From contig DGRX01000013.1 in assembly GCA_002391235.1 (NCBI GenBank), positions 68,742-132,741 of the forward strand: a stretch of 64,000 bases of DNA, in the 5' to 3' direction. Positions 33,929 to 48,523 of this stretch are shown piece after piece. This stretch comes from Treponema sp. UBA4377 (GTDB lineage Bacteria; Spirochaetota; Spirochaetia; Treponematales; Treponemataceae). The notes beneath the pieces were generated by a model. That model searched no databases and had not been told where the DNA came from. It was given only the letters and a program-made list of their open reading frames with translations. The position numbers and the translations under genes were made by a program. Numbering within the stretch: position 1 is the first letter of the stretch; each line of letters starts with the position of its first letter.

Positions 33929-33968
33929 TCTCGACAGGATTGATTATAGCGCGCGTCTGGGTTTTTGT

Positions 33969-33988: not shown

Positions 33989-34022
33989 GCGCGAACTGGC
34001 GGCGCGCGATATAATTACAAAT

Positions 34023-34613
34023 ATGGGCGTTGACATTTTATATTATGTGGACCATGACTTGCCGACGGATTGCGCGCAAAGTTTTTTGGCTGAATTTAAC
34101 AAGCGCGCCGGAGCTGACGGCAAATGGCGAATTATTGGCGGTTGGGCTGACGGTTCGTTAGAAAAGCAATTTCCAAATCCGGGCGGAGACATACATATTT
34201 ATAAGACTTGCGGCGATTCAGAGATTGAGTTGGAATTTGAAAAAAACACATTGCTGATTCGAAAATTGCCCGGCTGGACGGATAAAGTGGATTTTTGCAG
34301 ATGGCATACAATGAACGATTTCTTTGCTCAGAATGTCGATTATGCCAAGGAATGGAAAGAAAATCTTGTTTCGTTAATCAAAGAAAATCTTGCGCAAGTG
34401 TTCCATCCAACAAAAGTGATTCTTTTAAAGGACAGTTCCAGCTACGAGCATGAAACGTTGGGCGGCGAAAACCTTGAGGAGGAGGGCGGCACGATAGAAG
34501 AAGCCCTCGCGCTCAATTCAACCTTTGAAGAGCCGTGCGCCGTTTTGAAAAACGACGAGGCCTTTGGCCACTCGAAGGATTTACGCCAGCCGATATACGT
34601 TTTTGATTTGTGA
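34023..34613 (+). CDS. hypothetical protein
   Basis: Start chosen at MGVDILYY (the track ORF starts inside site s3); no recognisable motif. Confidence 0.5.
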   Translation: MGVDILYYVDHDLPTDCAQSFLAEFNKRAGADGKWRIIGGWADGSLEKQFPNPGGDIHIYKTCGDSEIELEFEKNTLLIRKLPGWTDKVDFCRWHTMNDFFAQNVDYAKEWKENLVSLIKENLAQVFHPTKVILLKDSSSYEHETLGGENLEEEGGTIEEALALNSTFEEPCAVLKNDEAFGHSKDLRQPIYVFDL

Positions 34614-34644
34614 AAGATGTCCTTGCCGCCAAGGCCGCAGCTCT

Positions 34645-35595
34645 TCATTCTTCTTTTTCAAAGAACGCCTTGTAAAAGCGCGTGGCGAGCGGTTGGCCAA
34701 AGGCGTCGGCAAGTTTTTGCGTCGCGCTTTCTTGGATCCAATTTAGCTCGCCGCCGACTTGCGACTTTATGTCGTTTATTTTCTTCATCGTCTTTTTGTA
34801 GAAGCTGTTGAATTCCACCAGCGTCATCGGCTGGATGCCAAGGTTATTTGTGTCGATGATTCCAAAAACTTGATGCCGCTTTGAGTCTGTCGCTACCACG
34901 ATATTTTCGCGGCCAGTCTTCATGTCTTTGTCCGTGAGCGCGACAAAATCGCCAAGGCAATATTCTGTGTGGCCAACCACTTGCGTTTGGTAATGCGCGT
35001 CGCGCAACAGCGCCTCTGGCCGGATCCACAGCGGGCCTTGCGTGACTTCGTTTCCGCTTCCGCTAAAATATCCGTGCCAGTCCAAGAGTTCCTCAAACTC
35101 GTAGTTGAACGCAGCGTCTCCCTTTTGGAGCGAAAGCGAGCGCCAGGTCTTGTTCAAAAAGTCAATCGACCATTTGCTTGCGTTCATGTTAAAAAGTTTT
35201 AGAATTGTCGCGACCCAAGTTTTGGAAAAGCCGCCGTGCGAGAACGCCACGCCGTCCGCCTCAAAAGCCAAGTCCAATATGTCGCGCGCGGAAAGCAAAA
35301 GACTTTTTATTATGCCCGCCCTTTCGTTTTGGTGGCCGGAACAGCCAGCGCCGTAAACCGTCGCGCTTAGGTAGCTCCAGTCGTGGTTTCCCAAAAGCGC
35401 CTTTCTGCGCTCGGGGTCCTGGCGGACAAAGGCGCAAATCGCCTCAAAGTTTTCGCCTTGCTCTGGCCACTTGTTTTCCCACGCGTCAAAGTAGTCGCCC
35501 ATAAAGACAATGCGGTCGTAGGAATCTTGCGGAAAACTTTTTGCCGCCTCCCACTCGCGCGAGCCGTGAACGTCTGGAACAACTAAAACTTTCAT
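34645..35595 (-). CDS. PPP-type metallophosphoesterase (Ser/Thr phosphatase or ApaH-like) with a C-terminal extension
   Basis: Motifs PDVHG, GDYFD, GNHD, SHGG, GHTE; start at MKVLVVPDVHG directly after a TATAAT box (near-leaderless). Confidence 0.75.
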   Translation of the reverse strand: MKVLVVPDVHGSREWEAAKSFPQDSYDRIVFMGDYFDAWENKWPEQGENFEAICAFVRQDPERRKALLGNHDWSYLSATVYGAGCSGHQNERAGIIKSLLLSARDILDLAFEADGVAFSHGGFSKTWVATILKLFNMNASKWSIDFLNKTWRSLSLQKGDAAFNYEFEELLDWHGYFSGSGNEVTQGPLWIRPEALLRDAHYQTQVVGHTEYCLGDFVALTDKDMKTGRENIVVATDSKRHQVFGIIDTNNLGIQPMTLVEFNSFYKKTMKKINDIKSQVGGELNWIQESATQKLADAFGQPLATRFYKAFFEKEE

Positions 35596-35627
35596 GCGGC
35601 CATTATAGCACAAAGAGCAAGATCGCG

Positions 35628-35647
35628 CATTAAAGCGCAACTTTAAT
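35628..35647. promoter_or_regulatory. palindromic site s4 (CATTAAAG-cgcaa-CTTTAAT)
   Basis: Immediately upstream (minus strand) of the promoter of 34645..35595. Confidence 0.6.
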
Positions 35648-35678
35648 GACAATTCTGATGAACGAGAATATAATTCAA

Positions 35679-36008
35679 TTATGATTTTAGACGAGCTATG
35701 ACTGCGGACACGGCTTTTATGTCATCGTCGCTAAGCGAGTTCAAATCTTTAATAAGCCTTAAGACCGGCTTTTTAGTCTCTCTAGGAACGGAGGATTCAG
35801 AGTTTGAAACTAAGTATTCAACCGAGACGTTAAGCGCGTTTGCCAACTTTACTGCTTCTGTGGCTCTAGGAACTGTGCCTGCTTTTCTCATGCTAGACAC
35901 GGTGGTTTCAGAAATGCCCATTTTGCTGGCAAGCCATCGGTATGTCGTGTTTTGCTCTCTTCGTAATGCTTCGACATTTTTCCAAAAAACCATACTTTGA
36001 TTATACAA
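35679..36008 (-). CDS. XRE-family HTH transcriptional regulator
   Basis: NTTYRWLASKMGISETTVSSMRKAGTVPRATEAVKLANALNVSVEYLV. Confidence 0.75.
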   Translation of the reverse strand: MYNQSMVFWKNVEALRREQNTTYRWLASKMGISETTVSSMRKAGTVPRATEAVKLANALNVSVEYLVSNSESSVPRETKKPVLRLIKDLNSLSDDDIKAVSAVIARLKS

Positions 36009-36124
36009 AGGTGAAATGCTTATTTCCGTAGTTTTTCTATTGAATAATGCGGTTTTAAGTAGTATATTTGGTAATAACTACGAAAACCCGTAGTTCTTAT
36101 AAATTCAATTTAGGAGAAGAAAAA

Positions 36125-36973
36125 ATGAAAAGAATTTTTTCTGTTAGACTTGCGGTTTTTGCCACAATATCATCGTTGCTTTTAGCGTCTTGCTCTTCAA
36201 CAAAGTCTATTGGGGTTAACACAAAAAAGACAGAGACCAATATAGTTGACTGGTCGAATAGGAATCTTGACGTCGTGGCCAAGCCAGAGTGGCTAAAAAA
36301 ATTGGTGGTAGGAAATTCCGATTTATTTAAAAAAGAATTTGGGGTTGAAAAGGACGCTATAGTAAAATTTGGAATCGCCGGAGCTAAGACACGTGACGCT
36401 TCGATTGCCGCTAGCCGGGTTAATTACAATGCCATGAGGGCGGAAGAGATAAAGAAAAAGGTTGTTTCGGAGGCTGCTGCAACGCTTAACAATGAAGGTT
36501 ATACAGAGGCGATAGCCAATGCGGCGTTTGTTGCTAAACTTGACTTGAGCGGGCACCAACTAGTTACACAGTTTTGGCAGAAGATTGAAAGCTATGATAA
36601 AAAGAGCGACGAAATTACAACAGAATTTATATGCTATTCTGTTTATAAAATTTCAAGAGAAGATTGGACAAAGACATTAAAGGGCTATTTATCTCAAGTA
36701 ATTCCCGCTCTACCTGATTCGCAAGCCCAGGTGAAAATGGCCCAGACAATCAAGTCTTTGTATGAAGACACTGCAAAAGAAAAAGAGATGAGCCAGCAGG
36801 CGGCTTTGGCTCAGTTCAGGGCTCAGGAAGAAGAAGCTCGCGTAAAGCAAGCCGAGGCTGCCGCGCAAGTTGCCAAGAACAATTCTGTGGCGGCTGTGGA
36901 GCAGGCGAAACGAGCGTCAAACAATGTTGATTGGGCGAGCACTCTATCGAAGGCTGCTGAAAACTTGTATTAA
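36125..36973 (+). CDS. lipoprotein (LPP20-like?)
   Basis: MKRIFSVRLAVFATISSLLLASCSS lipobox; Ala/Gln-rich coiled C-terminus. Confidence 0.6.
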   Translation: MKRIFSVRLAVFATISSLLLASCSSTKSIGVNTKKTETNIVDWSNRNLDVVAKPEWLKKLVVGNSDLFKKEFGVEKDAIVKFGIAGAKTRDASIAASRVNYNAMRAEEIKKKVVSEAAATLNNEGYTEAIANAAFVAKLDLSGHQLVTQFWQKIESYDKKSDEITTEFICYSVYKISREDWTKTLKGYLSQVIPALPDSQAQVKMAQTIKSLYEDTAKEKEMSQQAALAQFRAQEEEARVKQAEAAAQVAKNNSVAAVEQAKRASNNVDWASTLSKAAENLY

Positions 36974-36979
36974 AATAAT

Positions 36980-38008
36980 ATGGACATGAAAGATTTTAAT
37001 AAATCGCTTGCGTGCGTTTTAATTTTCATGTGCGCGTCTGGACTTTGTTTTGGAAAAAGCAAAAAAAAGGATTCCAAGGCAAAGTCCGACGCCCCGCTTT
37101 GGCTTACTGACGCGGGCCGATATTCTGTTTTTCCTGACAGCAGTTTTGTTTCTTCGTTTGCAAACGGGAGCTCCGCCGATGAAGCCAAAGAAAAGGCGTT
37201 GGCCGAAATTTCGCATGGAATTAAGACAAGCGTTTTGGCTGAAACAAAGCGACGGTATTCTATGGCGCAAGAAGGTTATTCAGCCTCGGAAAGGCTTTCT
37301 ATAGACGAAAAACAAAAGATTCAGTCTAAGAATGATCTTTACATGGCTGAATGGACAACGCCTTATTATGATTCGGCAATGGGGATGTACGCTTGTGTCG
37401 CTTACATAAACAGAAGAAAGGCTTTTGAGTATGTTCGGCCTACGCTGGACAAAGCAAAAGAGCTGTTTCCTGACGCGTATCAAAAAGCACTTTTACAAGA
37501 TGATGACTTTAAGAAAATAGTCTGCATTAAGCGGAGCCAAGACTTGTTAAAAGATTTCTATTCCGTTTATGATTTCGCGCGCTTTATACAGCCAAGCGCG
37601 GCGGAAGACTATCATGACATTGATTTGCTTTGCGGAAAGAGTTTCGCCAAGTTGAGCGAATTGAAGTCAAAGGTTGTAGTCAGTGTTCTCGTCAAAAAAG
37701 ATGCAAATGTCGAAGCAAAAGAATGCCTTAAAAAAGTTCTGAATGACGCGGGTTTTTCTGTTTCGGATTTTGATTCCAGCTATGTCGCTTTGTTGGAAAC
37801 ATCCTTTGAGATTGCAAAGAAAGAAAAGGTTTATTTATCTTATCCGGCTATTTCTGTTGAAGTGCGAAGGGTTGCTGACGGCCAGATTGTCGGTTCATAT
37901 TCCAATAAGTTGGAAAAATGCGCCGGCTTTGACTTGAATGGGGCAAAGCAAAAGGCCGAATTCGAAATAAAAAGGGATTTGGAAGAAAATTTTATAAGCA
38001 AACTGTAA
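36980..38008 (+). CDS. secreted protein, function unknown
   Basis: Signal peptide LACVLIFMCASGLCFG; same operon as the flanking lipoprotein genes. Confidence 0.6.
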   Translation: MDMKDFNKSLACVLIFMCASGLCFGKSKKKDSKAKSDAPLWLTDAGRYSVFPDSSFVSSFANGSSADEAKEKALAEISHGIKTSVLAETKRRYSMAQEGYSASERLSIDEKQKIQSKNDLYMAEWTTPYYDSAMGMYACVAYINRRKAFEYVRPTLDKAKELFPDAYQKALLQDDDFKKIVCIKRSQDLLKDFYSVYDFARFIQPSAAEDYHDIDLLCGKSFAKLSELKSKVVVSVLVKKDANVEAKECLKKVLNDAGFSVSDFDSSYVALLETSFEIAKKEKVYLSYPAISVEVRRVADGQIVGSYSNKLEKCAGFDLNGAKQKAEFEIKRDLEENFISKL

Positions 38009-38017
38009 GAGGTTTTT

Positions 38018-39529
38018 ATGAAAAAGAAGTTTTTGTTTGTCGCTTTGTTGACAGTTATGAGCGCCGCTTTTTTTTGCCAGGTCACTGACTCAAAGAAGGG
38101 GTATTTTAAGTTGGCGTGGGGATCCACGGTTGAGGATGCAAAGAAAGCTGGGTATAAATTGACAAAGCATGAGTTGAGTTCTAAGGCGCGTGAAGACTTG
38201 CTCGAACCGGTTGATTTTTATTTAGTTACCCCCCGAGAGAGTGTAGTAAAAAACCTTTCCTTTTGGTATTACGACGGAAAGCTTTTTGATGTTTTCGAAA
38301 AGGTTCAACTGCAAAATGTTCAGTCCAAAATCGAAAGCCGCTATGGAAATTTTAAGAAAAATGGAATTTCTAAGCTTAGTAATGGCGTTATGACGGATGT
38401 TGTATTAGATAATAACGGTAAGATTCTTTCTAGCTCGATTTCCATTGCGCCAAATGGATCTCAACTTGATGTTGCAATGTTCGATTGGAGTGTCGCAAAA
38501 AAAGTTTTTAAAAACTTTAGAGATTCTGCGGCGGATGTTGGCGGCAACGACAGCGAAGGTCTTGTATCAGCTCTTGAAACGCTGGCAAAAAAGCTTGTGA
38601 ATACAGGCGACGACAAAGTTTCGACATACGCGATTCTGAAGTTTTCTTCCGATTTTAACAATGTTCAGTATGAGGAATATATTACGGACATTTTAACAGA
38701 AGCTATTTTCAATACCGGTTCTGTAAAAATTATAGAACGCGCTAACCTTGAAAAAATTCTAAAAGAGCAAAAGCTTCAAGCAAGTGGTTTGATAAATGAA
38801 AAGACTGCTAAGGCGGTTGGAATGGTGTCTGGCGCGGATTACGTTTGCTACGGCTCCATAAAAGACATTGGAGCAAAATTCACGATCATTGCCCGCGTTG
38901 TTGATGTTGAGACAGGCGAAATTTGCGCGATGAGCCGTGACACAATCGAAAAGGACGAATATTTGCTTGGTTCATCTGGCGGTTCCTCTCGTTCACCTGA
39001 GACTAAATCAAATCGCGTTTCCGGCAAACCTGACAAAACAGCATGGACGTTAAAAAAATACAGAAGCGAGTTTGATGGATGCACTATTTACACATTTATT
39101 TGTCCATGCGCGGATGGCGCTTTCTTGTTCTTTGGCTATGAAAAGCGAGACAATCCATTGGAGTCTAGAGTTAGGGCTTGCCATGGAAAAATATATTCCG
39201 ATGGTTATGTTGTAGATATAAAGCTTGAAAATGGCGCCTTTGTACATAAAGAGCTTGATTATAACGGTGGAAATTCTTTTCGCTGGTATTTAAAATCAGG
39301 AACGGTAAAGGGGGCTTTCGATGCAGAACGCGTAAATATTTATAAAGAAACAGTAGAAGATGCTAGGGACTTTTACAATTATTACAAAGAAAATGATTCT
39401 ATTATTTTAAGAGAAACCAAAAGGGATTCGATCCATAGTTTCAAAACAGCAGGTTTTATGGCTTTGCTTGAGCAAAACGGGATAACCGACAAAGAGATTA
39501 TGGACGCCTTGGCAAACGAAGAGTTCTAG
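38018..39529 (+). CDS. secreted protein with a CsgG/LpoB-like domain
   Basis: VKIIERANLEKILKEQKLQASGLINEKTAKAVGMVSGADYVCYGSI resembles the CsgG/LpoB/FlgO-type fold signature. Confidence 0.55.
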   Translation: MKKKFLFVALLTVMSAAFFCQVTDSKKGYFKLAWGSTVEDAKKAGYKLTKHELSSKAREDLLEPVDFYLVTPRESVVKNLSFWYYDGKLFDVFEKVQLQNVQSKIESRYGNFKKNGISKLSNGVMTDVVLDNNGKILSSSISIAPNGSQLDVAMFDWSVAKKVFKNFRDSAADVGGNDSEGLVSALETLAKKLVNTGDDKVSTYAILKFSSDFNNVQYEEYITDILTEAIFNTGSVKIIERANLEKILKEQKLQASGLINEKTAKAVGMVSGADYVCYGSIKDIGAKFTIIARVVDVETGEICAMSRDTIEKDEYLLGSSGGSSRSPETKSNRVSGKPDKTAWTLKKYRSEFDGCTIYTFICPCADGAFLFFGYEKRDNPLESRVRACHGKIYSDGYVVDIKLENGAFVHKELDYNGGNSFRWYLKSGTVKGAFDAERVNIYKETVEDARDFYNYYKENDSIILRETKRDSIHSFKTAGFMALLEQNGITDKEIMDALANEEF

Positions 39530-39633
39530 GTTTTTAAAAACTGGCTTTCCACGAAAATTGGAAAGCCAGTTTTTTTTTGCAATTGCCCCGACGGTAACTT
39601 GTCATAGAAGTAATTTTTTAATATCTTTATTAT

Positions 39634-40422
39634 ATGAGCGTAAAATTTCTTGTGCCGGAAATTAACAAAAAAAGGTGGGCCGCTGAGTTCAAGAAAAGAA
39701 TCCGTTCTCGCAAATTAAAGTCAAAGGACTTGTGCGACATTGGCGCGGAAACAAATTACGAGCAGAAAATTAATAAATATAAAAACGGCGCGATACCCTC
39801 AATAGACATCTTTTTGACTTTTTGCAGGTTTTTTAATCTTCCGCCGGATTCATTTTTGTTCGCAAAGCCTAAATGGGTGGAATGTGACATCGCCTTTGGG
39901 AACATAGGCATTTCATTAAATCGATGGCTGGGATGGTTGGGCGATGTTTTCTATATAATTCCATTTAATGAAAATAAAAACGAAGACAAAAAGAGTCGTG
40001 GCGGCGTTTCCACTTATAAAGTCACTCTCTTTGACAAAGAGCCAAGTCCCTCAAAATTTTCGACTTTTCATCTTTCTGGAACGGAATATGACTTAAAAGA
40101 GCGCGTTAAAGATGGAAAAGTTATTTATCGATTTCCTCATGTGAACAACGAAAGAACCTCTAAAAAAATTTTCTCGCTTTTGAAAAAATACAAGCTTTCA
40201 AACAAGCAAATACAAGCCTTGCTGGGCTTAAGCTGCCAGTCTCTGACAAACAGAAAAAGGGAAATCCAGTCTTGGACAACCCAAGACATTTACAAATTGT
40301 CCTGGGTTTTAAATAAGCCTTTTGAAAGTCTTCTTGTAATTGATTACAGGGAAGAAACCCGCGAAGCGCTTTTTGATCCAATTGTTTTCTTAAGGGAGTG
40401 CTTGCGCGATGCCTATCACTAA
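39634..40422 (+). CDS. double-HTH protein (paralog of 29397..30215)
   Basis: MSVKFLVPEINKKRWAAEFKK.. aligns by eye with MKAKFLVPEIDTKRWAEDFKE..; it has the same two HTH segments. Confidence 0.6.
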   Translation: MSVKFLVPEINKKRWAAEFKKRIRSRKLKSKDLCDIGAETNYEQKINKYKNGAIPSIDIFLTFCRFFNLPPDSFLFAKPKWVECDIAFGNIGISLNRWLGWLGDVFYIIPFNENKNEDKKSRGGVSTYKVTLFDKEPSPSKFSTFHLSGTEYDLKERVKDGKVIYRFPHVNNERTSKKIFSLLKKYKLSNKQIQALLGLSCQSLTNRKREIQSWTTQDIYKLSWVLNKPFESLLVIDYREETREALFDPIVFLRECLRDAYH

Positions 40423-40443
40423 AACTCGCCTTTGTTCTTGAGT

Positions 40444-40710
40444 TCATGCTTCTTCGTATTCAAAATCAACGGTTCCTTTGGCGACAAGATCGTCCATTTT
40501 TACGCCAAGGATGGACTCCAGAGCCAAAAGGTTGTCCAAAGAAGGCATGTTTTTTCCGGCGAACCAATTGTAAATAGTTTGAACGTAAGGAAAGCCAAGC
40601 CTGGCTTGAACTTGTCTTGGCGTAATTCCTTTTTGTTCCATAACCGTCTTGATCTTTCGTCCTGTTCCCTTCATGTCTGGAACGGCCTTTATATAAGATG
40701 ATTTAATCAT
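40444..40710 (-). CDS. XRE-family HTH transcriptional regulator (paralog of 29043..29339)
   Basis: GRKIKTVMEQKGITPRQVQARLGFPYVQTIYNWFAGKNMPSLDNLLALESILGVKMDDLV. Confidence 0.75.
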   Translation of the reverse strand: MIKSSYIKAVPDMKGTGRKIKTVMEQKGITPRQVQARLGFPYVQTIYNWFAGKNMPSLDNLLALESILGVKMDDLVAKGTVDFEYEEA

Positions 40711-40766
40711 GGAAAACTCCTGTTTAAGCTTATCGTTGCTTTTGCAATTGCATTCACTGTCTACAG

Positions 40767-40843
40767 ATTATAAAGCATCGCTTTAATTTGTCATTAAACT
40801 TAAAATTTAAAGTGTTTGTGTTAAAGAACGTCTTTAATGACAA
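40767..40843. promoter_or_regulatory. operator cluster between divergent XRE genes (three variants of the cassette palindrome plus two promoters)
   Basis: ATTATAAAG-catcg-CTTTAAT (40767..40787), CATTAAAC..TTTAAAG (40792..40812), GTTAAAG-aacgt-CTTTAAT (40820..40838). Leftward ATGACA-N16-TATAAT and rightward ATGACA-N17-TATCCT. Confidence 0.55.
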
Positions 40844-40896
40844 TTCACCGTTTCTGCGTTATCCTACGTTCAGATAGGAGACATGCGTGGTTTATG

Positions 40897-41127
40897 GAAA
40901 GACCTGTGATTGACATTCCCGCGACGTCAAAGAGACTCAAAGAAATTCGCGAAAAGCGCGGGCTAAAAATATCAGATGTTCAAAAGTTCTTCAAATTTGA
41001 ATATCCGCAGGCCGTTTACGATTGGGAGAACCCCGAGAAAAAGACTCTTCCCAGAATCGAAAACCTTGTCTTCTTGGCAAAGATTTACGGTGTTTCTATG
41101 GACGAGCTGATTGTTTATGAGCGGTGA
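40897..41127 (+). CDS. XRE-family HTH transcriptional regulator
   Basis: KRLKEIREKRGLKISDVQKFFKFEYPQAVYDWENPEKKTLPRIENLVFLAKIYGVSMDELI; start chosen at MERPV. Confidence 0.7.
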   Translation, partial: ERPVIDIPATSKRLKEIREKRGLKISDVQKFFKFEYPQAVYDWENPEKKTLPRIENLVFLAKIYGVSMDELIVYER

Positions 41128-41156
41128 GGAAGTGGAGGGTGGAATTAAATTCTTTT

Positions 41157-41651
41157 TCAAAGTTTCATCGCATATTCCACGCTTGTGTTTAATATGGCCG
41201 CGGCCTTGGAAAGCGACATAAGCTCTTTGTCCAAGGCTTCGCTTACAGCCGACTCTAGAACGCTTTCAAAGTTGTCCGCAGTGTACGATATTTTTCTGCC
41301 CAAGACTTCTTCAAGATGCTTAATTTTTCTTTCCCGTATCGCGGGAATGACGGCGCTTTTTTCCGTCACTCTTTCTCCAAGCTCAAAAAATGAGTCCACG
41401 TTTATTTTAAAGTATCTTGCAACGCTTATCAAAAGGATGTCCGTAAACATTTCTTTTCCGGCAAAACACGCCTTGAGCCGTTTCTTGTCGAAGTCTTTTG
41501 AGAATTCTTTTCCGGGAAAACATGCCTTGAGCCATTCTTTGTTGAAGTCGTTTGAGAATTCTTCGGCAAGGTCGTCCGGGGTTATGTCGCGCAGCAGGCA
41601 TTGTTCGTATAAGCGGTCTGAAAAAAGTTTTTTGATGTCAGGCAGTTCCAT
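41157..41651 (-). CDS. hypothetical protein with an internal 18-aa repeat, possible HTH
   Basis: Start at MELPDIKK. Tandem EEFSNDFNKEWLKACFPGK / EFSKDFDKKRLKACFAGK. The N-terminal extension in the track ORF is encoded by repeat sequence. Confidence 0.5.
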   Translation of the reverse strand: MELPDIKKLFSDRLYEQCLLRDITPDDLAEEFSNDFNKEWLKACFPGKEFSKDFDKKRLKACFAGKEMFTDILLISVARYFKINVDSFFELGERVTEKSAVIPAIRERKIKHLEEVLGRKISYTADNFESVLESAVSEALDKELMSLSKAAAILNTSVEYAMKL

Positions 41652-41687
41652 AGCGCCTTCCAATATAGCGCTAGTCCGCGTTCCGCG

Positions 41688-41707
41688 CATTAAAGCCGCG
41701 CTTTAAT
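41688..41707. promoter_or_regulatory. palindromic site s6 (CATTAAAG-ccgcg-CTTTAAT)
   Basis: Contains the TAA stop of 41703..42110 and feeds the leftward promoter of 41157..41651. Confidence 0.6.
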
Positions 41708-42110
41708 CTTGGCGTTGGCTTTCAAGCCATTTTTTCTTTTCGTCTTGCGCGGCACTAGTTAATTCGGCAAGGACTTTGTCGTATTCGCTTTTGTCAAAAT
41801 AAAATTTCTGCGGATCTCTTTCACACCTGTATTCGTCAACCGTCCATTCAACGACATTGTCAGAAACTGGCCTGCATTTGGCGATCAAAGAACTGCATTC
41901 CCAAACACCGCAACCGCAATGAGCCAACACGACCAAGTTTCTCTCTTGCGCCCTTTCGTCAAGAATATCCCAACAATTAGCGGGATTGTAGTCATCGGAC
42001 TCGATTTTCTTTCCGTCAATGAAAAAATAGAAGGCCAAGTAATTTCCGCATTGGTCGCCTTGTTTTAAGTTGACTCGTTCGGTGGCAAAGGACAGTTTGC
42101 TTATTTTCAT
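41703..42110 (-). CDS. hypothetical protein (Cys-rich)
   Basis: 135 aa with GGAG RBS; no recognisable motif. Confidence 0.55.
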   Translation of the reverse strand: MKISKLSFATERVNLKQGDQCGNYLAFYFFIDGKKIESDDYNPANCWDILDERAQERNLVVLAHCGCGVWECSSLIAKCRPVSDNVVEWTVDEYRCERDPQKFYFDKSEYDKVLAELTSAAQDEKKKWLESQRQD

Positions 42111-42128
42111 TTTTCGCTCCGCTTGTGC

Positions 42129-42185
42129 CGAGAACGATAAGCGCGGGTACGCTATATATGCGAGTTATGCGCGCCTTCCGTTCTC
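42129..42185 (-). promoter_or_regulatory. 5' leader hairpin with conserved loop (third copy)
   Basis: Stem CGAGAACG.TAAGCGCG/CGCGCCTT.CGTTCTCG, loop GGTACGCTATATATGCGAGTTAT. Confidence 0.5.
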
Positions 42186-42220
42186 GACAGGAATAATTAT
42201 AGCGCGCTTGCGTTTCTTGT

Positions 42221-42240
42221 CATTAAAGTATTACTTTATT
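42221..42240. promoter_or_regulatory. palindromic site s7 (CATTAAAG-tatta-CTTTATT)
   Basis: Leftward promoter for 41703..42110. Rightward TTGACA (42239..42244), N17, TACACT (42262..42267). Confidence 0.6.
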
Positions 42241-42271
42241 GACAACTTCTTCTTTATGGCTTACACTTAAA

Positions 42272-42340
42272 GAGCCTTGAATGGTCGACCGCGGGGGTAA
42301 TAAGAACCCTCTTTCGCTTGACCATTCAAGGCTTTTTTGT
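42272..42340 (+). ncRNA. HP small RNA unit, copy g
   Basis: GCCTTGAATGG...CCATTCAAGGC followed by TTTTTTG; the interior differs from other copies but still pairs. Confidence 0.5.
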
Positions 42341-42446
42341 TGTGTCAACTTACCTCGAACAGCATTATAATCGCGCTTTAATCAAATTACATTTTTTGTT
42401 GACAAAATTGTATTTACACTTTATAATTACTTTTAGGCGGTGAGAA

Positions 42447-42764
42447 ATGCCAAAAGGCAAATTGGTGGTAAAAGGCCGGTTTGAGTGGTTCAGCGAAAAA
42501 AGCGAGGCGAACAAAAAGCACGGATTCACTTTTGAAGAAATCCTTGACGCTTTTGACGACCCGTTTTTCTATGAAATCTACGACTCCGGACATTCAAAAG
42601 TGAACCAAGCCAGGTACAACGGCTTTGGGTATGCGAAAGGGCAGCTTCTTGTGGCGCAAATCGTCTACACGGAAGCGGAACGGACGCATATAATTTCGGC
42701 TCGTCCCGCAACGTCACGGGAAAGGAAACTGTATTATGAAAGAATTAAAGAAATTTATCGCTGA
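42447..42764 (+). CDS. brnT: BrnT-family toxin (DUF497)
   Basis: FEWFSEKSEANKKHGFTFEEILDAFDDPF...HIISARPATSRERKLY; TTGACA-N17-TATAAT upstream. Confidence 0.8.
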   Translation: MPKGKLVVKGRFEWFSEKSEANKKHGFTFEEILDAFDDPFFYEIYDSGHSKVNQARYNGFGYAKGQLLVAQIVYTEAERTHIISARPATSRERKLYYERIKEIYR

Positions 42765-43008
42765 GCGGGAGGCTCACGCCGTTCCCGACAAAAAGATTGA
42801 CACCTCGGACATTCCCGAATTGACGGCGGAAGACTTTGCCCGCGGACATTTCAAATACTGGAAGCCCGCGAAAAAGAGCATAACGATTCGGATTGACATC
42901 GACAATTTGGCTTGGCTGCAAAGCGTCGGAAAAAAAGACTACCAAACCCGCCTTAACGGAGCGTTGCGCTGGGCCAGAATGAACGATTGTCCTGTGGCTC
43001 AGCTTTAG
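42736..43008 (+). CDS. brnA: BrnA-family antitoxin
   Basis: Overlaps brnT; C-terminal SITIRIDIDNLAWLQSVGKKDYQTRLNGALRW ribbon-helix-helix-type pattern. Confidence 0.75.
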   Translation: MKELKKFIAEREAHAVPDKKIDTSDIPELTAEDFARGHFKYWKPAKKSITIRIDIDNLAWLQSVGKKDYQTRLNGALRWARMNDCPVAQL

Positions 43009-43020
43009 GCATGATTCGCG

Positions 43021-43040
43021 CATTAAAGTATTACTTTATT
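43021..43040. promoter_or_regulatory. palindromic site s8 (CATTAAAG-tatta-CTTTATT)
   Basis: Rightward TTGACA-N17-TATACT. Confidence 0.6.
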
Positions 43041-43071
43041 GACAACTTCTTCTTTTTGGCTTATACTTAAA

Positions 43072-43140
43072 GAGCCTTGAGTAGACATCTGGGTGGGAAA
43101 ATATATCCCTCTTCCACGTGTCCACTCAAGGCTTTCTTGT
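43072..43140 (+). ncRNA. HP small RNA unit, copy h
   Basis: GCCTTGAGTAG...CCACTCAAGGC followed by TTTCTTG. Confidence 0.45.
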
Positions 43141-43155
43141 TGTGTCAACTTCCCC

Positions 43156-43267
43156 AAAAAAAAACGCTCCCGCCAAAAGGCAGGAGCGAATGCCGTTAGA
43201 GGGCAGCGCTCCTCTGTCGCAGAATCCCGAAGGAAACACCGCAGTGGCTATCTCTGACGTAAACGAC
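43156..43267 (-). ncRNA. empty-cassette transcript T2 (promoter, conserved leader, conserved tail, terminator, no ORF)
   Basis: TATAAT at 43279..43274. Leader GTCGTTTACGTCAGAGATAGCCACTGCGG. Tail identical to the 3' end of 46536..47183. Terminator CGCTCCTGCC-TTTT-GGCGGGAGCG plus T9. Confidence 0.5.
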
Positions 43268-43299
43268 AAGCGTATTATAGCGCAAGAGCGGGAAGCGCG

Positions 43300-43319
43300 C
43301 ATTAAAGTTGCGCTTTAAT
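43300..43319. promoter_or_regulatory. palindromic site s9 (CATTAAAG-ttgcg-CTTTAAT)
   Basis: Contains the TAA stop of 43315..44022; provides the -35 region for T2. Confidence 0.6.
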
Positions 43320-44022
43320 TTGCCGCCTCTTTTGCTTTGCGATAGGAATCCAAAAGCTCGTACATCGCTTCGTTCGCGGCCCATCGAAAGATGGATCCGA
43401 TTTCGTCATAATCAATGGAATTTCTAAAATAGTCAGGCGATTCAATGAGAAATCCCGCTTGGCAGCCCGCTTGGTAACTGCATTCGCCGCCGCACAGGTC
43501 AAACAAGTCCTCGTCGCAATCCGCGCAATGCTTGTAGCAAGGATTGGCGCCGTTTTCCAAAAGTTCCTTTGCCGCCTTAAAATCCATTCTCTTAACGGCG
43601 ACATTCAAGTCCAAGTCGATTTTCCTCGCTCCGTTGGAAATGAAGTCGCTTTTCTTGCCCTCAAGAATTTCTTCGTCGCTTTCATCTTCGCGCGCCCATA
43701 ACGCAGGGGGAATCTTTGAAAATGGAATTTCTATCGCGTTAATTCCTTTTTTTTCTTTGATGAGGGAAAGAATTTTTTTTGCGTTTTCATAGTTTGGGCG
43801 CGTTATTTGAGCGAATGGCTCGCGAAAATCTTGCCAAAAGCAAATCTCCCAGCAACGGCTTATGTACTGAATGGGAATTGGAATCCCAAAATATTTTTCC
43901 ATGCCTATGTCGGAAAAAACGCCGTCGTTGTACGCGCCCGATTCCAATAATTCTTTTGCTTTTTCATATTCGTTGAACACGACAGCCAACACGAGCGGGT
44001 CTTTAAAAAAATATCTTTCCAT
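43315..44022 (-). CDS. hypothetical protein (weak ankyrin-like repeats)
   Basis: 235 aa, GGAGGA RBS; repeated KAKELLESGA / AAKELLENGANP segments. Confidence 0.55.
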   Translation of the reverse strand: MERYFFKDPLVLAVVFNEYEKAKELLESGAYNDGVFSDIGMEKYFGIPIPIQYISRCWEICFWQDFREPFAQITRPNYENAKKILSLIKEKKGINAIEIPFSKIPPALWAREDESDEEILEGKKSDFISNGARKIDLDLNVAVKRMDFKAAKELLENGANPCYKHCADCDEDLFDLCGGECSYQAGCQAGFLIESPDYFRNSIDYDEIGSIFRWAANEAMYELLDSYRKAKEAAN

Positions 44023-44071
44023 AATAGCATCCTCCGCAGGTTATGATTGTAGCGCAAGAGCGGAAAGCGTG

Positions 44072-44091
44072 CATTAAAGCCATACTTTAAT
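44072..44091. promoter_or_regulatory. palindromic site s10 (CATTAAAG-ccata-CTTTAAT)
   Basis: Leftward TACAAT promoter for 43315..44022. Confidence 0.6.
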
Positions 44092-44103
44092 TATTACGGA
44101 GGC

Positions 44104-44176
44104 GGAAAAAAGAAGCCTTGAATGGTCAAATAGAAGACGGCTCTTATTACCGAATCAAATGACTATTCAAGGCTCC
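44104..44176 (-). ncRNA. HP small RNA unit, copy j (the only minus-strand copy)
   Basis: Minus-strand TTGACA (44208..44203), N17, TAGATT (44185..44180). Hairpin GCCTTGAATAG...CCATTCAAGGC followed by TTCTTTTTT. Confidence 0.5.
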
Positions 44177-44241
44177 TAAAATCTAATTCAAAAACAAGGC
44201 ATTGTCAATAAAAGCAAGCGGTCTTTTTCCAACTTGGCGGC

Positions 44242-44640
44242 TTAGTAGCCGTAGCCATAATTGTTGGGGGGATTTTGCTGAGGTCGTTTCTTGCGCTTAA
44301 AAATCATTTCTAAAGAAGCACCGCCAGCGAACGCAGTAATTCCTGCTAACTCCCAGCCCTGTTCTCCAAGTTGGTTCATTCTTTCTTGGGTTACTTTAGT
44401 AACTTCTTCAGACATATACTCCCATTTGGTCAACTCTTCCTCTTCCATTCTTCTTCTCGCGGCCGCGTCCTGCGCGGCCATTCTCTCGTTCTCGGCCTTT
44501 ATCTTTTCCGCCTCGGCGTTGAGCCTCGCGGTCTCGGCGCGGATCTTCTCGATTTCTCCGCCTGGTTCGACGCCCGTCTTTCCGCCTTCGACGGCGCGCG
44601 GCCGCGGCAAGTCGCTAAAAATGTCAAATTCGACGCTCAT
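44242..44640 (-). CDS. DUF4177-like protein with an N-terminal coiled coil
   Basis: C-terminal WEYMSEEV...MNQLGEQGWELAGI matches the DUF4177 pattern. Confidence 0.55.
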   Translation of the reverse strand: MSVEFDIFSDLPRPRAVEGGKTGVEPGGEIEKIRAETARLNAEAEKIKAENERMAAQDAAARRRMEEEELTKWEYMSEEVTKVTQERMNQLGEQGWELAGITAFAGGASLEMIFKRKKRPQQNPPNNYGYGY

Positions 44641-44691
44641 GCGCCCCCTCCTTGTTTCCTTAAAAAATTCTAAGCCATGCCGCCAATTTTG

Positions 44692-45096
44692 TCAAGCGAC
44701 TTGGCAAAGTTTTTTAAGTTCCTTGCTAGTCCAAGCCATAATGGTGTTTAGGCTCTTTAAAGCCTTTTTAGTTTTTGCCAAAGAGCTTTTACCGCCGCCT
44801 GGGTAGATTGAGTCCGGGCCGTATGCATTCAAGTCGGCGCAAGCCGCAAGAACTTTTGCCGGGACAGTGGAACGCTTCGCCCGCAGTTTTATTAAGCGCG
44901 ACAAGTCATGGCTTTCGCCAAATTTTATTCCGAAAGCGGTTAGCAAGGCTTTTAAATGTTTTTCCGCGGCTTGCTGACAATCAAAGCATATTATCTTCAA
45001 TGGAGGCGGAGTCATGCTTTGAAAAAGATGGAGCGCGCTGTCATAGTCGCGTTTTGCGTATTCCAACCATTCCTTTACATGCGTTTCGGCTTTCAT
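44692..45096 (-). CDS. HEPN-domain protein (orphan; no adjacent nucleotidyltransferase gene)
   Basis: WLEYAKRDYDSALHL...QQAAEKHLKALL...ESHDLSRL is typical of the HEPN partner of MNT-HEPN pairs. Confidence 0.65.
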   Translation of the reverse strand: MKAETHVKEWLEYAKRDYDSALHLFQSMTPPPLKIICFDCQQAAEKHLKALLTAFGIKFGESHDLSRLIKLRAKRSTVPAKVLAACADLNAYGPDSIYPGGGKSSLAKTKKALKSLNTIMAWTSKELKKLCQVA

Positions 45097-45146
45097 GCTT
45101 CTTTATGTTCTCCTAAATTGATTGTATGATGAATGCTCCGTTTTGT

Positions 45147-45166
45147 CATTAAAGTATTACTTTATT
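45147..45166. promoter_or_regulatory. palindromic site s11 (CATTAAAG-tatta-CTTTATT)
   Basis: Leftward TACAAT-like promoter for the HEPN gene. Rightward TTGACA (45165..45170), N17, TACACT (45188..45193). Confidence 0.6.
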
Positions 45167-45197
45167 GACAACTTCTTCTTTTTGGCTTACACTTAAA

Positions 45198-45266
45198 GAG
45201 CCTTGAGTGGTCAATCATGGGGGCAATAGTAGCCCTCTTTCGTTTGTCCATTCAAGGCTTTTTTGT
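45198..45266 (+). ncRNA. HP small RNA unit, copy k
   Basis: GCCTTGAGTGG...CCATTCAAGGC followed by TTTTTTG; inner stem GGGGGC-AATAGTA-GCCCTC contains a G-U pair. Confidence 0.5.
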
Positions 45267-45437
45267 TTTAATTGACAAATAATTTTTTCTTGTGATATAT
45301 TTTTTGAAAGAGCTTTAAAAAAAAGACCGCCACGTTCCCTAGCACTGCAAAAAGCAGGAGAAAGGATTGCGTGGCTTACATAAGCATTATATGCGATATT
45401 AGTATAAAAGTCAAGGACAGATTTTTATTGGAATAAT

Positions 45438-45884
45438 GTGATTCCGCTTTCACAGTCAGAAGTCGCGATGCTTAACGACGCCCAGCTTAAAATGAAGCGA
45501 AATGGCAAAAAATATAGCCACGGCCGCCTTGTCGCTGAACTTACTTTGGGATTTTGGGTTGCCCTTATGGGAAGAAAATATAACACTCAAGCCTTTCAGT
45601 TTGCCATAATAAAGCGCTGTCTTCACGGCTGTCCGGCAAATCAAAAGAAATCCAGCGCCGTTCAAAAAAATTTGTCGGAAATTAGATTTTTAAGAAATCG
45701 AATCGCCCATCACGAACGAATTTCACATTGGAAAGATTTAAAACAGAAACATGACTTGCTTTTGGATTTTACATTTTGGCTGAACAAGGACATGCATAAA
45801 ATCGCCGTGGACCATGATTCCTTTAATGATGTTTATAACACTGGCATCGCGCCGTTCCTTGATTTCGTTGAGAATGAATTATAG
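45438..45884 (+). pseudogene. Abi-like protein (Abi_2/AbiD-F family), N-terminally truncated
   Basis: C-terminal LSEIRFLRNRIAHHERI HEPN-type motif. Only 148 codons from a GTG, which looks N-terminally truncated; no RBS seen. Confidence 0.5.
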
Positions 45885-45926
45885 CCCAAACTCTTACCTA
45901 AAAACGGCGCTTTAATAACAAAAAAA

Positions 45927-46010
45927 CGTTGTTGCGGCGGGGGTCGAACCCGCAATACGAACTTTATTGCGTAAAGTTTCCTCTACCGCGTTGAGGGCAT
46001 CGCAACAACG
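45927..46010 (-). ncRNA. tRNA-mimic element TL2
   Basis: 10-bp stem CGTTGTTGCG/CGCAACAACG, linker ATGC, D arm CCTC-AACGCGGTA-GAGG, 6-7 bp anticodon-like stem, T arm GCGGG-TTCGACC-CCCGC, then TTTTTTT. Confidence 0.55.
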
Positions 46011-46106
46011 GGAAGCGGCGGAAACCGTAACGACGGTAAACGCCGTTACAGCTACAAGCCTGAGCGCTCTCGTTTCCGCGGACAGACGGGTGCCGCCATT
46101 GCTTCC
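46011..46106 (-). ncRNA. 3WJ element, copy v3 (directly 5' of TL2 on the minus strand)
   Basis: Hairpin P3 is CTGTAAC/GTTACGG (a U-G pair on the minus strand). Confidence 0.5.
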
Positions 46107-46248
46107 AAAAACTCAAAACAAGCCGGATTAATTCCGACTGCCCCAAGCAAGATTCCATTGGTAAACTTGAATCTCAGAAACAATATCTGAGGCAGAGATT
46201 TACTGACAATGGAATTAATTAATTATATAGCATGGATGCGATTCTTGT

Positions 46249-46268
46249 CATTAAAGTATTACTTTATT
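46249..46268. promoter_or_regulatory. palindromic site s12 (CATTAAAG-tatta-CTTTATT)
   Basis: Leftward TATATAAT promoter reads towards v3/TL2; rightward TTGACA-N17-TATATT. Confidence 0.6.
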
Positions 46269-46301
46269 GACAACATATTCTTTTTGGCTTATATTCTTGA
46301 C

Positions 46302-46387
46302 TGTCCGATCGGGGGCAAGCGTTATTTTGCGGTTGCTCAAGATTGGGCGGTAAAGGCTTGTCCGAAAGGGCAAGCCGGATTTTTTTA
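46302..46387 (+). ncRNA. small transcript unit, variant of the HP family
   Basis: Promoter as in the HP copies but a different body. Terminator GGCTTGTCC-GAAA-GGGCAAGCC plus T7; the same terminator recurs at about 49308..49345. Confidence 0.4.
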
Positions 46388-46449
46388 AACGGAAGCGGTG
46401 GATTTTGTCATTGCTAAAAAAACGCTCCCGCCAAAAGGCAGGAGCGAAT

Positions 46450-46529
46450 GCCGTTGAAGTTCGCCACATTTCCTCAGCCGCCGGACAACGATTGTCCGAC
46501 CCGCAGCAGGCATCTCTACATTAAACGGC
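46450..46529. repeat. about 80-bp structured repeat, second copy
   Basis: See 25561..25641. Confidence 0.55.
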
Positions 46530-46535
46530 GCGTCG

Positions 46536-47183
46536 TTAGAGGGCAGCGCTCCTCTGTCGCAGAATCCCATCAAGTCGCAAAAGCTCAAAGCCGTTGGCGT
46601 CCATGCAAACATTCTTGTAGCGCGACGGATTGACTTTGCGCTTTGGAAAGCTTTTGTTCCAGTCGTTCATAAAATAATTTTCGGTCACAAAAGTTTGGTG
46701 CGTGTGGCCGTGAATATTTGCGCATGCGCTCTTCTTGTCCAAAAAGACAGGCTCGTGCGACAAGACATAATCGCCAAAAAGCAGCGGCCCCTTGTAAACG
46801 TTGTCAAAGCCAAGACTCTTGTAGAATTCGATAAAAGTTGTGAAAGGCCGCTTGTCGTTCATAAAGTCGTGGTTTCCAAGAATCAAATTCATCTTGCGGT
46901 TCATTTTCATCCGCATCACGGCGTTCATGATTTTTGACCGCTCCATTTTTGCGTTCAAATACACGTCGCCAAAATTCCAAATCAAGCAGTCGTCGGGGAG
47001 CGCGTCGAATTTCTTTAGCAAGAACTCCGTCATCTCCGCGCAGCCTTTTGGCGAATAGTCAAACGGGCGGCCGCAATATTTGATTATGTTCGTGTGGAAC
47101 AAGTGCAAGTCGCTTGTGATGAAAATCTTTTCCGGCGGATAGCCCAGCGTAAATTCTTCTTTTGTCAGCCGCTTGTAGTCCAT
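46536..47183 (-). CDS. calcineurin-like metallophosphoesterase (paralog of 27029..27676)
   Basis: Start at MDYKRLTKEEF directly after TATAAT. Motifs SDLHLFH, FGDVY, GNHD, HGHTH. The last 10 codons (GILRQRSAAL) are encoded by the shared cassette-tail repeat. Confidence 0.75.
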   Translation of the reverse strand: MDYKRLTKEEFTLGYPPEKIFITSDLHLFHTNIIKYCGRPFDYSPKGCAEMTEFLLKKFDALPDDCLIWNFGDVYLNAKMERSKIMNAVMRMKMNRKMNLILGNHDFMNDKRPFTTFIEFYKSLGFDNVYKGPLLFGDYVLSHEPVFLDKKSACANIHGHTHQTFVTENYFMNDWNKSFPKRKVNPSRYKNVCMDANGFELLRLDGILRQRSAAL

Positions 47184-47218
47184 AGCGGCGTTATTATAGC
47201 GCAGGAGACGGAAGAGCG

Positions 47219-47238
47219 CATTAAAGCCGCGCTTTAAT
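47219..47238. promoter_or_regulatory. palindromic site s13 (CATTAAAG-ccgcg-CTTTAAT)
   Basis: Leftward ATGCGC-N17-TATAAT, 9 nt before the ATG at 47183. Confidence 0.6.
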
Positions 47239-47248
47239 GAAAAAAAAC

Positions 47249-47345
47249 GGAAGCGGCGGAAACCGTAACGACGGTAAACGCGCGTTACGGCTACAAGCCT
47301 GAGCGCTCTCGTCTCCGCGGACAGGCGGGTGCCGCCATTGCTTCC
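47249..47345 (-). ncRNA. 3WJ element, copy v4
   Basis: P3 is CCGTAAC/GTTACGG; followed on the minus strand by GTTTTTTTT. Confidence 0.5.
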
Positions 47346-47444
47346 AAAAGACGCGGAAAACAAGACCGCGCTTTTATTGGACAGGATACAACAAGCGCTA
47401 TCTCTCGCCCAACAATTTTATTATAATGCAAAAACGGTTTTTGT

Positions 47445-47464
47445 CATTAAAGTTGTACTTTAAT
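47445..47464. promoter_or_regulatory. palindromic site s14 (CATTAAAG-ttgta-CTTTAAT)
   Basis: Leftward ATGACA-N16-TATAAT promoter. Confidence 0.6.
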
Positions 47465-47470
47465 TTGTTG

Positions 47471-48523
47471 TCAGTATGGAACGAAAGTCAACTCGTTCGT
47501 CGCCACGGTGAAAAGGCTTTGTAGCGCCGCTGACATGGAAGTGTCCGTTGTCGTTCCGCTTGAGTTTGTCGTGGTTTCGCTTGACACTAAAGTCCACTTC
47601 ATTTGCTGCGCGGTTCCGGAGACTTCGAAAACGTCGGAAATCGACACGTAGTTGCCGCCGCTGTTGTCTATTTTGAATTTTATTGTTATTCGAGAGCCGC
47701 TCATCGTCGCCTTGCAGTTGGTGTAAAGGCCGGAGGCGCTTCCGCCTTTGAACATGTTGAAAGAACTGTCGCTATTTATCTTCAAGTACGTTCCGCTTTG
47801 CGCTTCCCCTTGTTTTTTCCAAGAGCCCACGACGGAGAAACTGGGGCTTTGTCCGCCGGACGAGCCGCCGGAAGAAGCGTCGAAGGTTATGGAATAAGTT
47901 TCCGAAAAGATGGGAGATGAATCCTTCAAGTCTCCGCGGACGAACATCGCCTCGATTTTTCCCTCCGAAGTTTTTCTTAAAGCAAGAGCTTTGACATAAG
48001 GATTGCTTCTTGACGTGGGGCTGTTTTTGTTCGTTATGACTTCGTAGAGACAGGCGTCGGTCGCGTGGAAATTTCTTCCGGGTCCGGACATGAGCGTCGC
48101 GACGGCCGAATTCAAGTCTTGCGAGAGGTCGGGATGAAGCGCGACCGCCTCGTTCGTCGCCGCGTTTAGAGTTGAAACGCCTTTCCAATTGTTCAAAAGG
48201 TGGCTGTACTGTCCTGTTTGAATGGTCTTAGCGTCGGCGTAGAACACTCCTCCCGAATAGCCTTTGAACTCTCCGTCCGCCGCGAAAGTAAGCGTCGCTT
48301 TCTCCGAGTCGATGACTAGGGTGTTGGTCTTTCCCTGCGAGTCGATTTTGGTCCACGTTCCGGCCATCGCGATGTATTTTGTCTTTGCGGCCGCTGCCGC
48401 CAAGTCGGCTTCGCTTTGTCCGCCGCCACCTCCACCGCCAGAAGCGTTGGAACATCCAGCCAATGTCAATGCCGCTGCAGCCGCAATAGCGGCGATTTTG
48501 CGCCGCGCAAAAATTTTCTTCAT
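47471..48523 (-). CDS. lipoprotein with a Gly-rich linker, function unknown
   Basis: Start at MKKIFARRK (AAGGAG upstream), lipobox LTLAGCS followed by GGGGGG. Confidence 0.6.
   Translation of the reverse strand: MKKIFARRKIAAIAAAAALTLAGCSNASGGGGGGGQSEADLAAAAAKTKYIAMAGTWTKIDSQGKTNTLVIDSEKATLTFAADGEFKGYSGGVFYADAKTIQTGQYSHLLNNWKGVSTLNAATNEAVALHPDLSQDLNSAVATLMSGPGRNFHATDACLYEVITNKNSPTSRSNPYVKALALRKTSEGKIEAMFVRGDLKDSSPIFSETYSITFDASSGGSSGGQSPSFSVVGSWKKQGEAQSGTYLKINSDSSFNMFKGGSASGLYTNCKATMSGSRITIKFKIDNSGGNYVSISDVFEVSGTAQQMKWTLVSSETTTNSSGTTTDTSMSAALQSLFTVATNELTFVPY

Follow-up and report, generated by a model that had tools for sequence, protein, structure and literature searches.

A divergent pair of XRE-family proteins as the likely autoregulated regulator of palindrome-headed promoters on a Treponema genomic island

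Controller (C) proteins are autogenous regulators carried on mobile DNA, in which occupancy of a distal site beside the −35 hexamer activates the promoter through sigma region 4 and occupancy of a proximal site shuts it off (PMC2504287). The locus considered here is a divergent pair of genes for XRE-family helix-turn-helix (HTH) proteins, XL and XR, on a genomic island of a Treponema genome (2.67 Mb in 31 contigs), and was analysed within a stretch of 64,000 nucleotides (contig C13:68742–132741, hereafter the window). Phage lambda offers a second point of comparison, for cI activates through sigma region 4 from a corresponding position at OR2, which sits at about −42 of PRM. Copies of a palindrome, (C)ATTAAAG-N5-CTTTAAT(G), head the cassettes of the island, and variants of it lie between XL and XR. 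We consider it probable that XL and XR recognize this palindrome and autoregulate, and that one or both of them govern the cassette promoters, and the palindrome is most probably the cognate operator of both proteins. An earlier proposal, made in an initial annotation of this DNA, that one or both proteins recognize the palindrome and co-regulate the cassettes thus gains support from sequence comparison, and the pairing of regulator with operator appears strongly supported by four lines of evidence: phyletic pattern (co-occurrence of protein and palindrome), position (sites at the own promoters of about 22 XL-family modules), covariation, and constraint on the control region. Taken together, they make the XL/XR pair the likely regulator of the island promoters, and probably one that regulates itself.

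The control region and the cassette palindromes

The 183-bp control region between XL and XR contains a leftward promoter, P_L, a rightward promoter, P_R, and three variants of the palindrome (Table 1); a promoter scan of the region found these two promoters and no others. With transcription assumed to start about 7 nt beyond each −10 hexamer, site 1 (as a 19-mer, TATAAAG..CTTTAAT, with 2 mismatches) overlaps the spacer and −10 of P_L and is centred at about −18, site 2 reaches two bases into the −35 of P_L and is centred at about −42, as OR2 is at PRM, and site 3 is centred at about −43 of P_R, which is the standard cassette register. The module to which site 3 belongs (ATTAAAGAACGTCTTTAATGACAA) also heads paralogues elsewhere. 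When all 2,668,530 positions of the genome were scanned with a symmetrized weight matrix derived from the cassette sites, 17 in number, only 13 non-training positions reached 10 bits or more, three of them in the control region and another in the intergenic region of a paralogous divergent pair, XL2/P272. Sites 1–3 ranked within the eight best non-cassette matches of the genome. This ranking implies that the three sites are real, far beyond chance. Because the cassette sites score 24–36 bits on the same matrix, against 11–15 bits for sites 1–3, the regulators clearly possess weaker variants at their own promoters.

The initial annotation had placed three palindrome variants here, and their positions hold, although only sites 1 and 3 are good variants and site 2 is degenerate. 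The leftward promoter, with site 1 in its spacer and −10, was recovered by the promoter scan exactly as proposed. The rightward promoter was recovered as well, but the statement that its −35 lies inside the third site was too strong, because the overlap with site 3 is limited to the first two bases of the hexamer. The divergent XRE genes were correctly called, except that the start of XR had been set three bases late, at 40897 instead of the ATG at 40894; the XR orthologues in genomes G085 and G026 begin at the same codon.

Constraint on this region is pronounced. The order P262–XL–three sites–XR, in which P262 is a neighbouring gene convergent with XL, recurs in six genomes, the window's included, that represent different species. 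When the window was aligned with three of these, variation was seen in 5 of the 183 intergenic columns (2.7%) versus 64 of 501 in the XL and XR genes (12.8%), so that the control region varies about 5-fold less than the two genes that flank it. Three of the five intergenic changes fall on N5 spacer bases, at 40779 in site 1 and at 40827 and 40830 in site 3, and none of the five alters a half-site or a promoter hexamer in the four-genome alignment.

All copies in the genome of GCATTAAAG-N5-CTTTAAT, with up to one mismatch, lie within 32–50 kb of the window, where they head toxin-antitoxin pairs, phosphoesterases, HEPN genes and small-RNA units, and the loose palindrome core is enriched (28 observed versus 7 expected). 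In 16 of the 17 window modules a minus-strand −10 with at least five of six matches follows at a spacing of 16–18 in fixed register, and seven of the window cassette sites also drive a plus-strand promoter. The −35 position is occupied by ATGACA in 9 of the 17 modules and by ATGCGC or ATGCAC in the remaining 8. Arrays from eight genomes supplied 91 distinct sites, and the 91 scored promoters keep a good −10 at 16–18 nt; their −35 position reads ATGACA in 51, ATGCGC in 27 and ATGCAC in 2, the latter two with just 2/6 matches, and an extended −10 TG is found in only 7. By their −35, ATGACA or ATGCGC, the cassette promoters of the window and of the arrays (loci L041–L056) fall into two discrete classes, and in the window's ATGCGC-class copies the spacer begins and ends with GCGC.

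The same palindromes could be taken mainly for a recombination or cassette-junction site, comparable to integron attC or to a recombinase core, instead of an operator; they do mark cassette boundaries, and cassettes have been shuffled between genomes. However, attC is a hairpin with AAC/GTT boxes (PMC3607928), which the island palindrome, at 19–21 bp with a variable centre, is not. The sole integrase scores 45.2 bits on the XerA/IntI-type model, whose cut-off is 220, and is no integron integrase, the register to the −10 hexamer is fixed in the 91 scored promoters, and the palindrome covaries with an HTH recognition helix (see below). An integron reading was rejected on the grounds that there is no IntI, that attC features are lacking, and that the repeats stand upstream of genes with their own −10. 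We therefore consider a primary role in recombination very improbable.

Covariation, co-occurrence and the probable readers of the palindrome

XL and XR are paralogues of about 35% identity that cross-match by tblastn, and both exceed the gathering cut-off of HTH_3 (PF01381), which is 23 bits. The AlphaFold2 model of XL (predicted local distance difference test, pLDDT, 96.2) has helices at residues 13–27, 31–38, 44–50 and 58–68 and beta-strands at 2–12 and 77–87, which flank the HTH at the N- and C-terminus. Its predicted recognition helix spans Q44–F50 (FPYVQTIYNWF), with Gln44 as the first residue; the corresponding helix of XR is FEYPQAVYDWE. A Foldseek search with the model returned XRE structures at probability 1.00, led by 3bs3, a Bacteroides XRE protein. 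The controller proteins C.BclI and C.AhdI took ranks 2–4, with a root-mean-square deviation of 1.4–1.5 over 63–64 columns and template-modelling scores of 0.64–0.65 on the query and 0.72–0.85 on the target, and further matches included BldD, the DNA-binding domain of ImmR and lambda repressor N-domains. By sequence profile both proteins match phage-repressor families generically and weakly, and nothing more closely. A candidate sigma-contact (positive-control) residue, sought by setting helix 2 beside Glu34 of lambda cI, was dropped, the register being ambiguous by one residue.

From the Y-x-Q start that is common to both helices we infer that XL and XR share an operator specificity. Helices that begin Y/N-x-Q pair with ATTAAAG-N5-CTTTAAT, as in XL (FPYVQTIY), XR (FEYPQAVY) and the proteins of loci L009 and L012, whereas a Glu-type sister subfamily with the helix FSSPEAIYAWE pairs, in 10 distinct modules and at an unchanged promoter register, with ATTCAAG-N5-CTTGAAT, in which both half-sites carry the A-to-C change. 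That Gln favours adenine and Glu cytosine is textbook protein-DNA chemistry. When a sample of 201 genomes from the genus was scanned blind for the C-type palindrome, 19 copies came up in 18 genomes; eight of these copies were in promoter context, and seven of the eight precede Glu-type proteins. Locus L066 (160–3258) carries three tandem modules, in the order Q/A, E/C, Q/A. The operators of the Glu-type subfamily (L084–L102) occur as single modules only, with no arrays in the sample.

The distribution of the two partners across the same 201 genomes is consistent with their association. The perfect palindrome is present in 42 genomes and forms arrays of at least three copies in 9, as against 13 genomes, with one copy each, for a reversed control pattern. 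XL-family genes (E ≤1e-5) occur in 82 genomes, and rumen and gut Treponema that have them include the cultured Treponema bryantii NK4A124, with members at L073 and near 93 kb of G183:C6. They accompany the perfect palindrome in 37 of its 42 genomes, versus 45 of the 159 genomes without it; all nine array genomes have them.

Outside the arrays, a single palindrome lies 300–410 nt upstream of an XL-family gene in about 22 distinct paralogue modules, whose products are 50–60% identical to XL or are more distant and XR-like. Each such palindrome stands at about −43 of a promoter to which it is invariably joined; its half-sites are conserved and its five central bases variable, and the sequence upstream of it is unrelated from locus to locus. 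Such modules bear directly on the suggestion that XL and XR are merely two ordinary cassettes placed back to back, their sites being module remnants, and that the true reader is encoded elsewhere, as P262, as its paralogue P272, or as a host factor. Sites 2 and 3 do stand in the standard module register, cassettes have moved between genomes and XR is known from another context, and P262 always adjoins XL, with which it is syntenic at every orthologous locus. Yet no homologue of P262, P272 or P177, the product of a neighbouring 177-amino-acid gene, is found near the single-palindrome loci, where the palindrome nonetheless adjoins an XL-family gene, and because these three proteins are absent from every such locus we judged them unlikely readers, if still conceivable ones for the array. 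Site 1, moreover, is an additional operator at a non-standard position, helix and half-site covary inside the XL family, and the control region is far less variable than the genes. An ordinary-cassette origin with a separate reader accordingly appears improbable, and we retain XL and XR as the probable readers.

Several observations weigh against this assignment. The paralogue modules are homologous, so that their counts are inflated by common descent and are not fully independent, and several paralogue promoters have the asymmetric site ATTAAAG-N5-CGCTAAT. The module at L089 joins a Gln helix (MEKPQAIYNWE) to a C-type site, and residue 42 (Tyr/Asn versus Ser/Lys) may for this reason share in the read-out. 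The helix of XL2, a paralogue of XL in the window, is FPYVQTMYNWF, against FPYVQTIYNWF in XL, and yet a different palindrome stands in the XL2 promoter. Of site 2, XL2 and the 74% identical XL orthologue of L063 retain the promoter-proximal half alone (GTTTAAT beside GACAA, next to the −35), which makes it a weak site or a half-site, and probably the latter. Lastly, XR orthologues in G085 (93%) and on contig 9 of G026 (87%) occur without XL and without the three sites, each closing a three-gene operon behind two AAA ATPase genes. XL and XR thus need not go together, and with XR in an ATPase operon and XL paralogues in single-gene modules the pair is one of several module combinations.

Some further features of these relatives are recorded here. 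The XR operon of G085 is divergent from a pair encoding an HTH protein and an N6-methylase, and its similarity to the window starts at the XR start codon. XL paralogues elsewhere (L029 1178–1500; L025–L039 aligned) follow a conserved leader of about 270 nt, which holds an open reading frame of about 50 amino acids rich in His, Cys and Trp (e.g. MKAMNSYNFNLNCLEHSFCSECRFSEHSWCENHESWHE...) and then a conserved hairpin before the XRE start codon; the leader may constitute a leader-peptide or attenuation device. An altered specificity of XL2 was also considered, and no conclusion was drawn: its TTACAG/CTGTAA differs, its helix departs from that of XL by Ile46Met alone, and the copy of the site in G128 is asymmetric.

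A proposed circuit and the question of a toggle

Based on the geometry of the sites, a simple mechanism can be proposed. Dimers of XL and of XR would bind the palindrome, and an occupied site 1 should block RNA polymerase at P_L, resulting in negative autoregulation of XL. Sites 3 (at P_R) and 2 (at P_L) hold the same register of about −43/−42 as the roughly 17 cassette palindromes, and whatever gene comes to lie behind the standard promoter-operator unit would thereby join an island-wide regulon under the XL and XR proteins. Since sites 1–3 are much weaker than the cassette sites, the cassette promoters would be occupied first, with autoregulation setting in only at higher protein levels. As to the sign of regulation exerted through the −43 register, activation and repression appear about evenly balanced. 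Activation would fit the register itself and the third of the modules in which the −35 is poor; repression would fit the overlap of the site with the first bases of the −35 and the near-consensus −35 (ATGACA or TTGACA) of more than half of the modules.

The initial annotation had gone further and read the locus as a cI/cro-type bistable switch. Divergent regulator genes with intergenic operators are indeed present; coverage of both core promoters and a C-terminal domain are not. In a true toggle of this kind XL and XR would bind the sites in opposite orders of affinity and repress each other, and the cassettes would be on or off as two heritable states. The divergent promoters, the three intervening sites, whose centres are spaced by 24 and 27 bp as in lambda OR, a specificity residue predicted to be identical in the two paralogues, the extreme conservation of the control region, and the weak matches of both proteins to phage repressor families are all compatible with such a device. 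On the other hand, XL and XR are single-domain proteins, in which a Pfam scan found no second domain and no C-terminal oligomerization, self-cleavage or Peptidase_S24 domain. The core of P_R (spacer and −10) is uncovered, since site 3 overlaps only 2 bp of its −35, site 2 is degenerate, and the placement of sites 2 and 3 fits activation as well as repression. XR turns up without XL at the end of an unrelated operon, XL paralogues occur as single-gene, single-site modules, and no prophage genes were found among the screened island genes. We regard a true toggle as unlikely, and bistability of the XL/XR pair as possible but unsupported.

A more elaborate version of the autoregulated regulon, which we put forward tentatively, is a plug-and-play grammar in which one module heads all cassettes, antisense and small-RNA units included, and both XRE paralogues, with one base-reading residue in common, act in a controller-like manner. 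After the island enters a new cell the cassettes, of which many are toxin-antitoxin or defence-like, would stay silent until regulator accumulates, site 1 would cap its synthesis, and one paralogue would activate while the other competes; the sister subfamilies (Gln to Glu, A to C) would then represent orthogonal circuits able to coexist in one genome.

Island setting and comparison with described systems

Table 1. Coordinates of the regulator pair, its sites and promoters, and associated features (positions in the window unless a locus is named)
Feature	Position	Strand	Sequence or match	Remarks
tRNA gene	23166-23237			ahead of the integrase gene
Tyrosine integrase gene	23319-24449			follows the tRNA gene
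XL2	29043-29339	-		57% identical to XL; part of a second, paralogous divergent pair
P272	29397-30215	+		54% identical to P262; divergent partner of XL2
17 cassette promoter modules	32051..49964		(C)ATTAAAG-N5-CTTTAAT(G)	presumed regulon; centred at about −43
P262	39634..40422	+	weak XRE HTH matches	262 amino acids; convergent with XL
XL	40444..40710	-	Pfam HTH_3 (PF01381), 41.1 bits, 1.8e-10	XRE-family HTH, 88 amino acids
P_L	40794..40767	-	ATGACA-16-TATAAT	promoter scan, 11/12 matches
Site 1	40767..40787		ATTATAAAG-catcg-CTTTAAT	centre 40778; 14.2 bits
Site 2	40793..40811		ATTAAAC-ttaaa-ATTTAAA	centre 40802; 11.4 bits; 3 mismatches, degenerate
Site 3	40820..40838		GTTAAAG-aacgt-CTTTAAT	centre 40829; 15.2 bits; 1 mismatch
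P_R	40837..40865	+	ATGACA-17-TATCCT	promoter scan, 9/12 matches
XR	40894..41127	+	Pfam HTH_3, 31.9 bits, 1.4e-7	XRE-family HTH, 77 amino acids (MERPVID...)
XR-orthologue operon, G085:C38	L052 12757-17333		TTTCAAG-N5-CTTTAAT	headed by this site
XR-orthologue operon, G026:C9	L043 12744-16754		TTTCAAG-N5-CTTTAAT	headed by this site

The island is the stretch of lower G+C content that follows the integrase gene and reaches to about 51 kb, and its cargo comprises toxin-antitoxin pairs and genes for calcineurin-like phosphoesterases and for HEPN, PIN and STAND-ATPase proteins. An RNA-family search of the window matched two tRNAs and nothing else. XL and XR lie 17 kb from the integrase gene, among P262, P177 and lipoprotein genes, and no restriction-modification domains were found among the screened neighbours. 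Island segments are 88–97% identical at the protein level between genomes of different species (L057–L061 versus window 39634–41127), and one copy (L063) is binned as Clostridiales; this identity suggests recent horizontal spread or, for the Clostridiales copy, mis-binning.

The gap between XL2 and P272 in the second divergent pair is 57 bp, with the palindrome GTTACAG-acatg-CTGTAAA at the spacer/−10 position of the XL2 promoter and a degenerate site of 11.9 bits in the same intergenic region. Both P262 and P272 are apparently expressed from leaderless or near-leaderless mRNAs, P262 from TTGTCA-N17-TATCTT followed after 6 nt by ATG (39600–39636) and P272 from TTGTCA-N17-TACCAT followed after 7 nt by ATG (29361–29399); the lambda cI message from PRM is likewise leaderless. 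In the region 41649–41690, the ATG of the longest open reading frame of P177 (41690) coincides with the ATG of the gene's own −35 position, ATGCGC, and the likely start is 41651 (MELPDIKK...), just about 10 nt beyond the −10. A further palindrome, TTGCAATTGC, lies at 40742..40751 in the 5′ untranslated region of XL, and its only other exact copy in the window lies at 39577–39586, ahead of the P262 promoter, the two copies flanking the P262–XL pair. The 74% identical XL orthologue (L063 1008–1019) retains the palindrome, and with one mismatch allowed it is not enriched (13 versus 11.8 expected). It could serve as an additional operator, with P262 as a conceivable target.

If XL and XR act as proposed, a mobile island would place many independently promoted cargo genes under one regulator through one reused module, a rare regulatory case and an alternative to integrons, which rely on a single upstream promoter. 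The protein class, the palindromic operators and autoregulation are in themselves conventional. The Gln/A versus Glu/C pairing would amount to a natural specificity swap, usable as orthogonal repressor-operator pairs, and, rumen and gut Treponema being poorly tractable, T. bryantii NK4A124 offers an experimental route. Literature searches on Treponema integrons and on C proteins listed no description of this palindrome or regulator family.

Among described regulators, the controller proteins C.AhdI, C.BclI, C.Esp1396I and C.PvuII resemble XL in being small, single-domain XRE HTH proteins, and they are dimers. The geometry of P_L, where one site lies distally at about −42 and another proximally at about −18, resembles theirs in outline. 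Unlike C proteins, XL and XR have no attached restriction or methylase genes, their P_L sites stand 24 bp from each other instead of adjoining and the distal one is degenerate, any activation by them would be putative, and they form a set of two paralogous regulators with about 17 presumed further target promoters. The island operator probably differs in sequence from the C-box consensus.

The lambda cI/Cro region (OR1–OR3, PRM/PR) shares with this locus its divergent HTH genes and three related intervening operators at a spacing of about 24–27 bp. It differs in the C-terminal domain of cI, which XL and XR do not have, in belonging to a prophage, and in its overlapping operators, P_L and P_R being back to back and 42 bp apart, with the core of P_R left uncovered; the operators of XL and XR also occur at about 17 distant promoters. 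With ImmR of ICEBs1, and with XRE antitoxin or autorepressor modules, the pair shares an XRE HTH protein on an integrated island, a tyrosine integrase beside a tRNA gene, and presumed autoregulation through palindromes at its own promoter. In contrast to ImmR, no ImmA-like protease partner was seen near XL and XR, and the pair stands at a distance from the integrase and would act on cargo cassettes rather than on excision or transfer genes. Although it has the defining features of neither, the proposed circuit resembles a controller-protein switch spread over many promoters, or else an immunity region that has no prophage around it.

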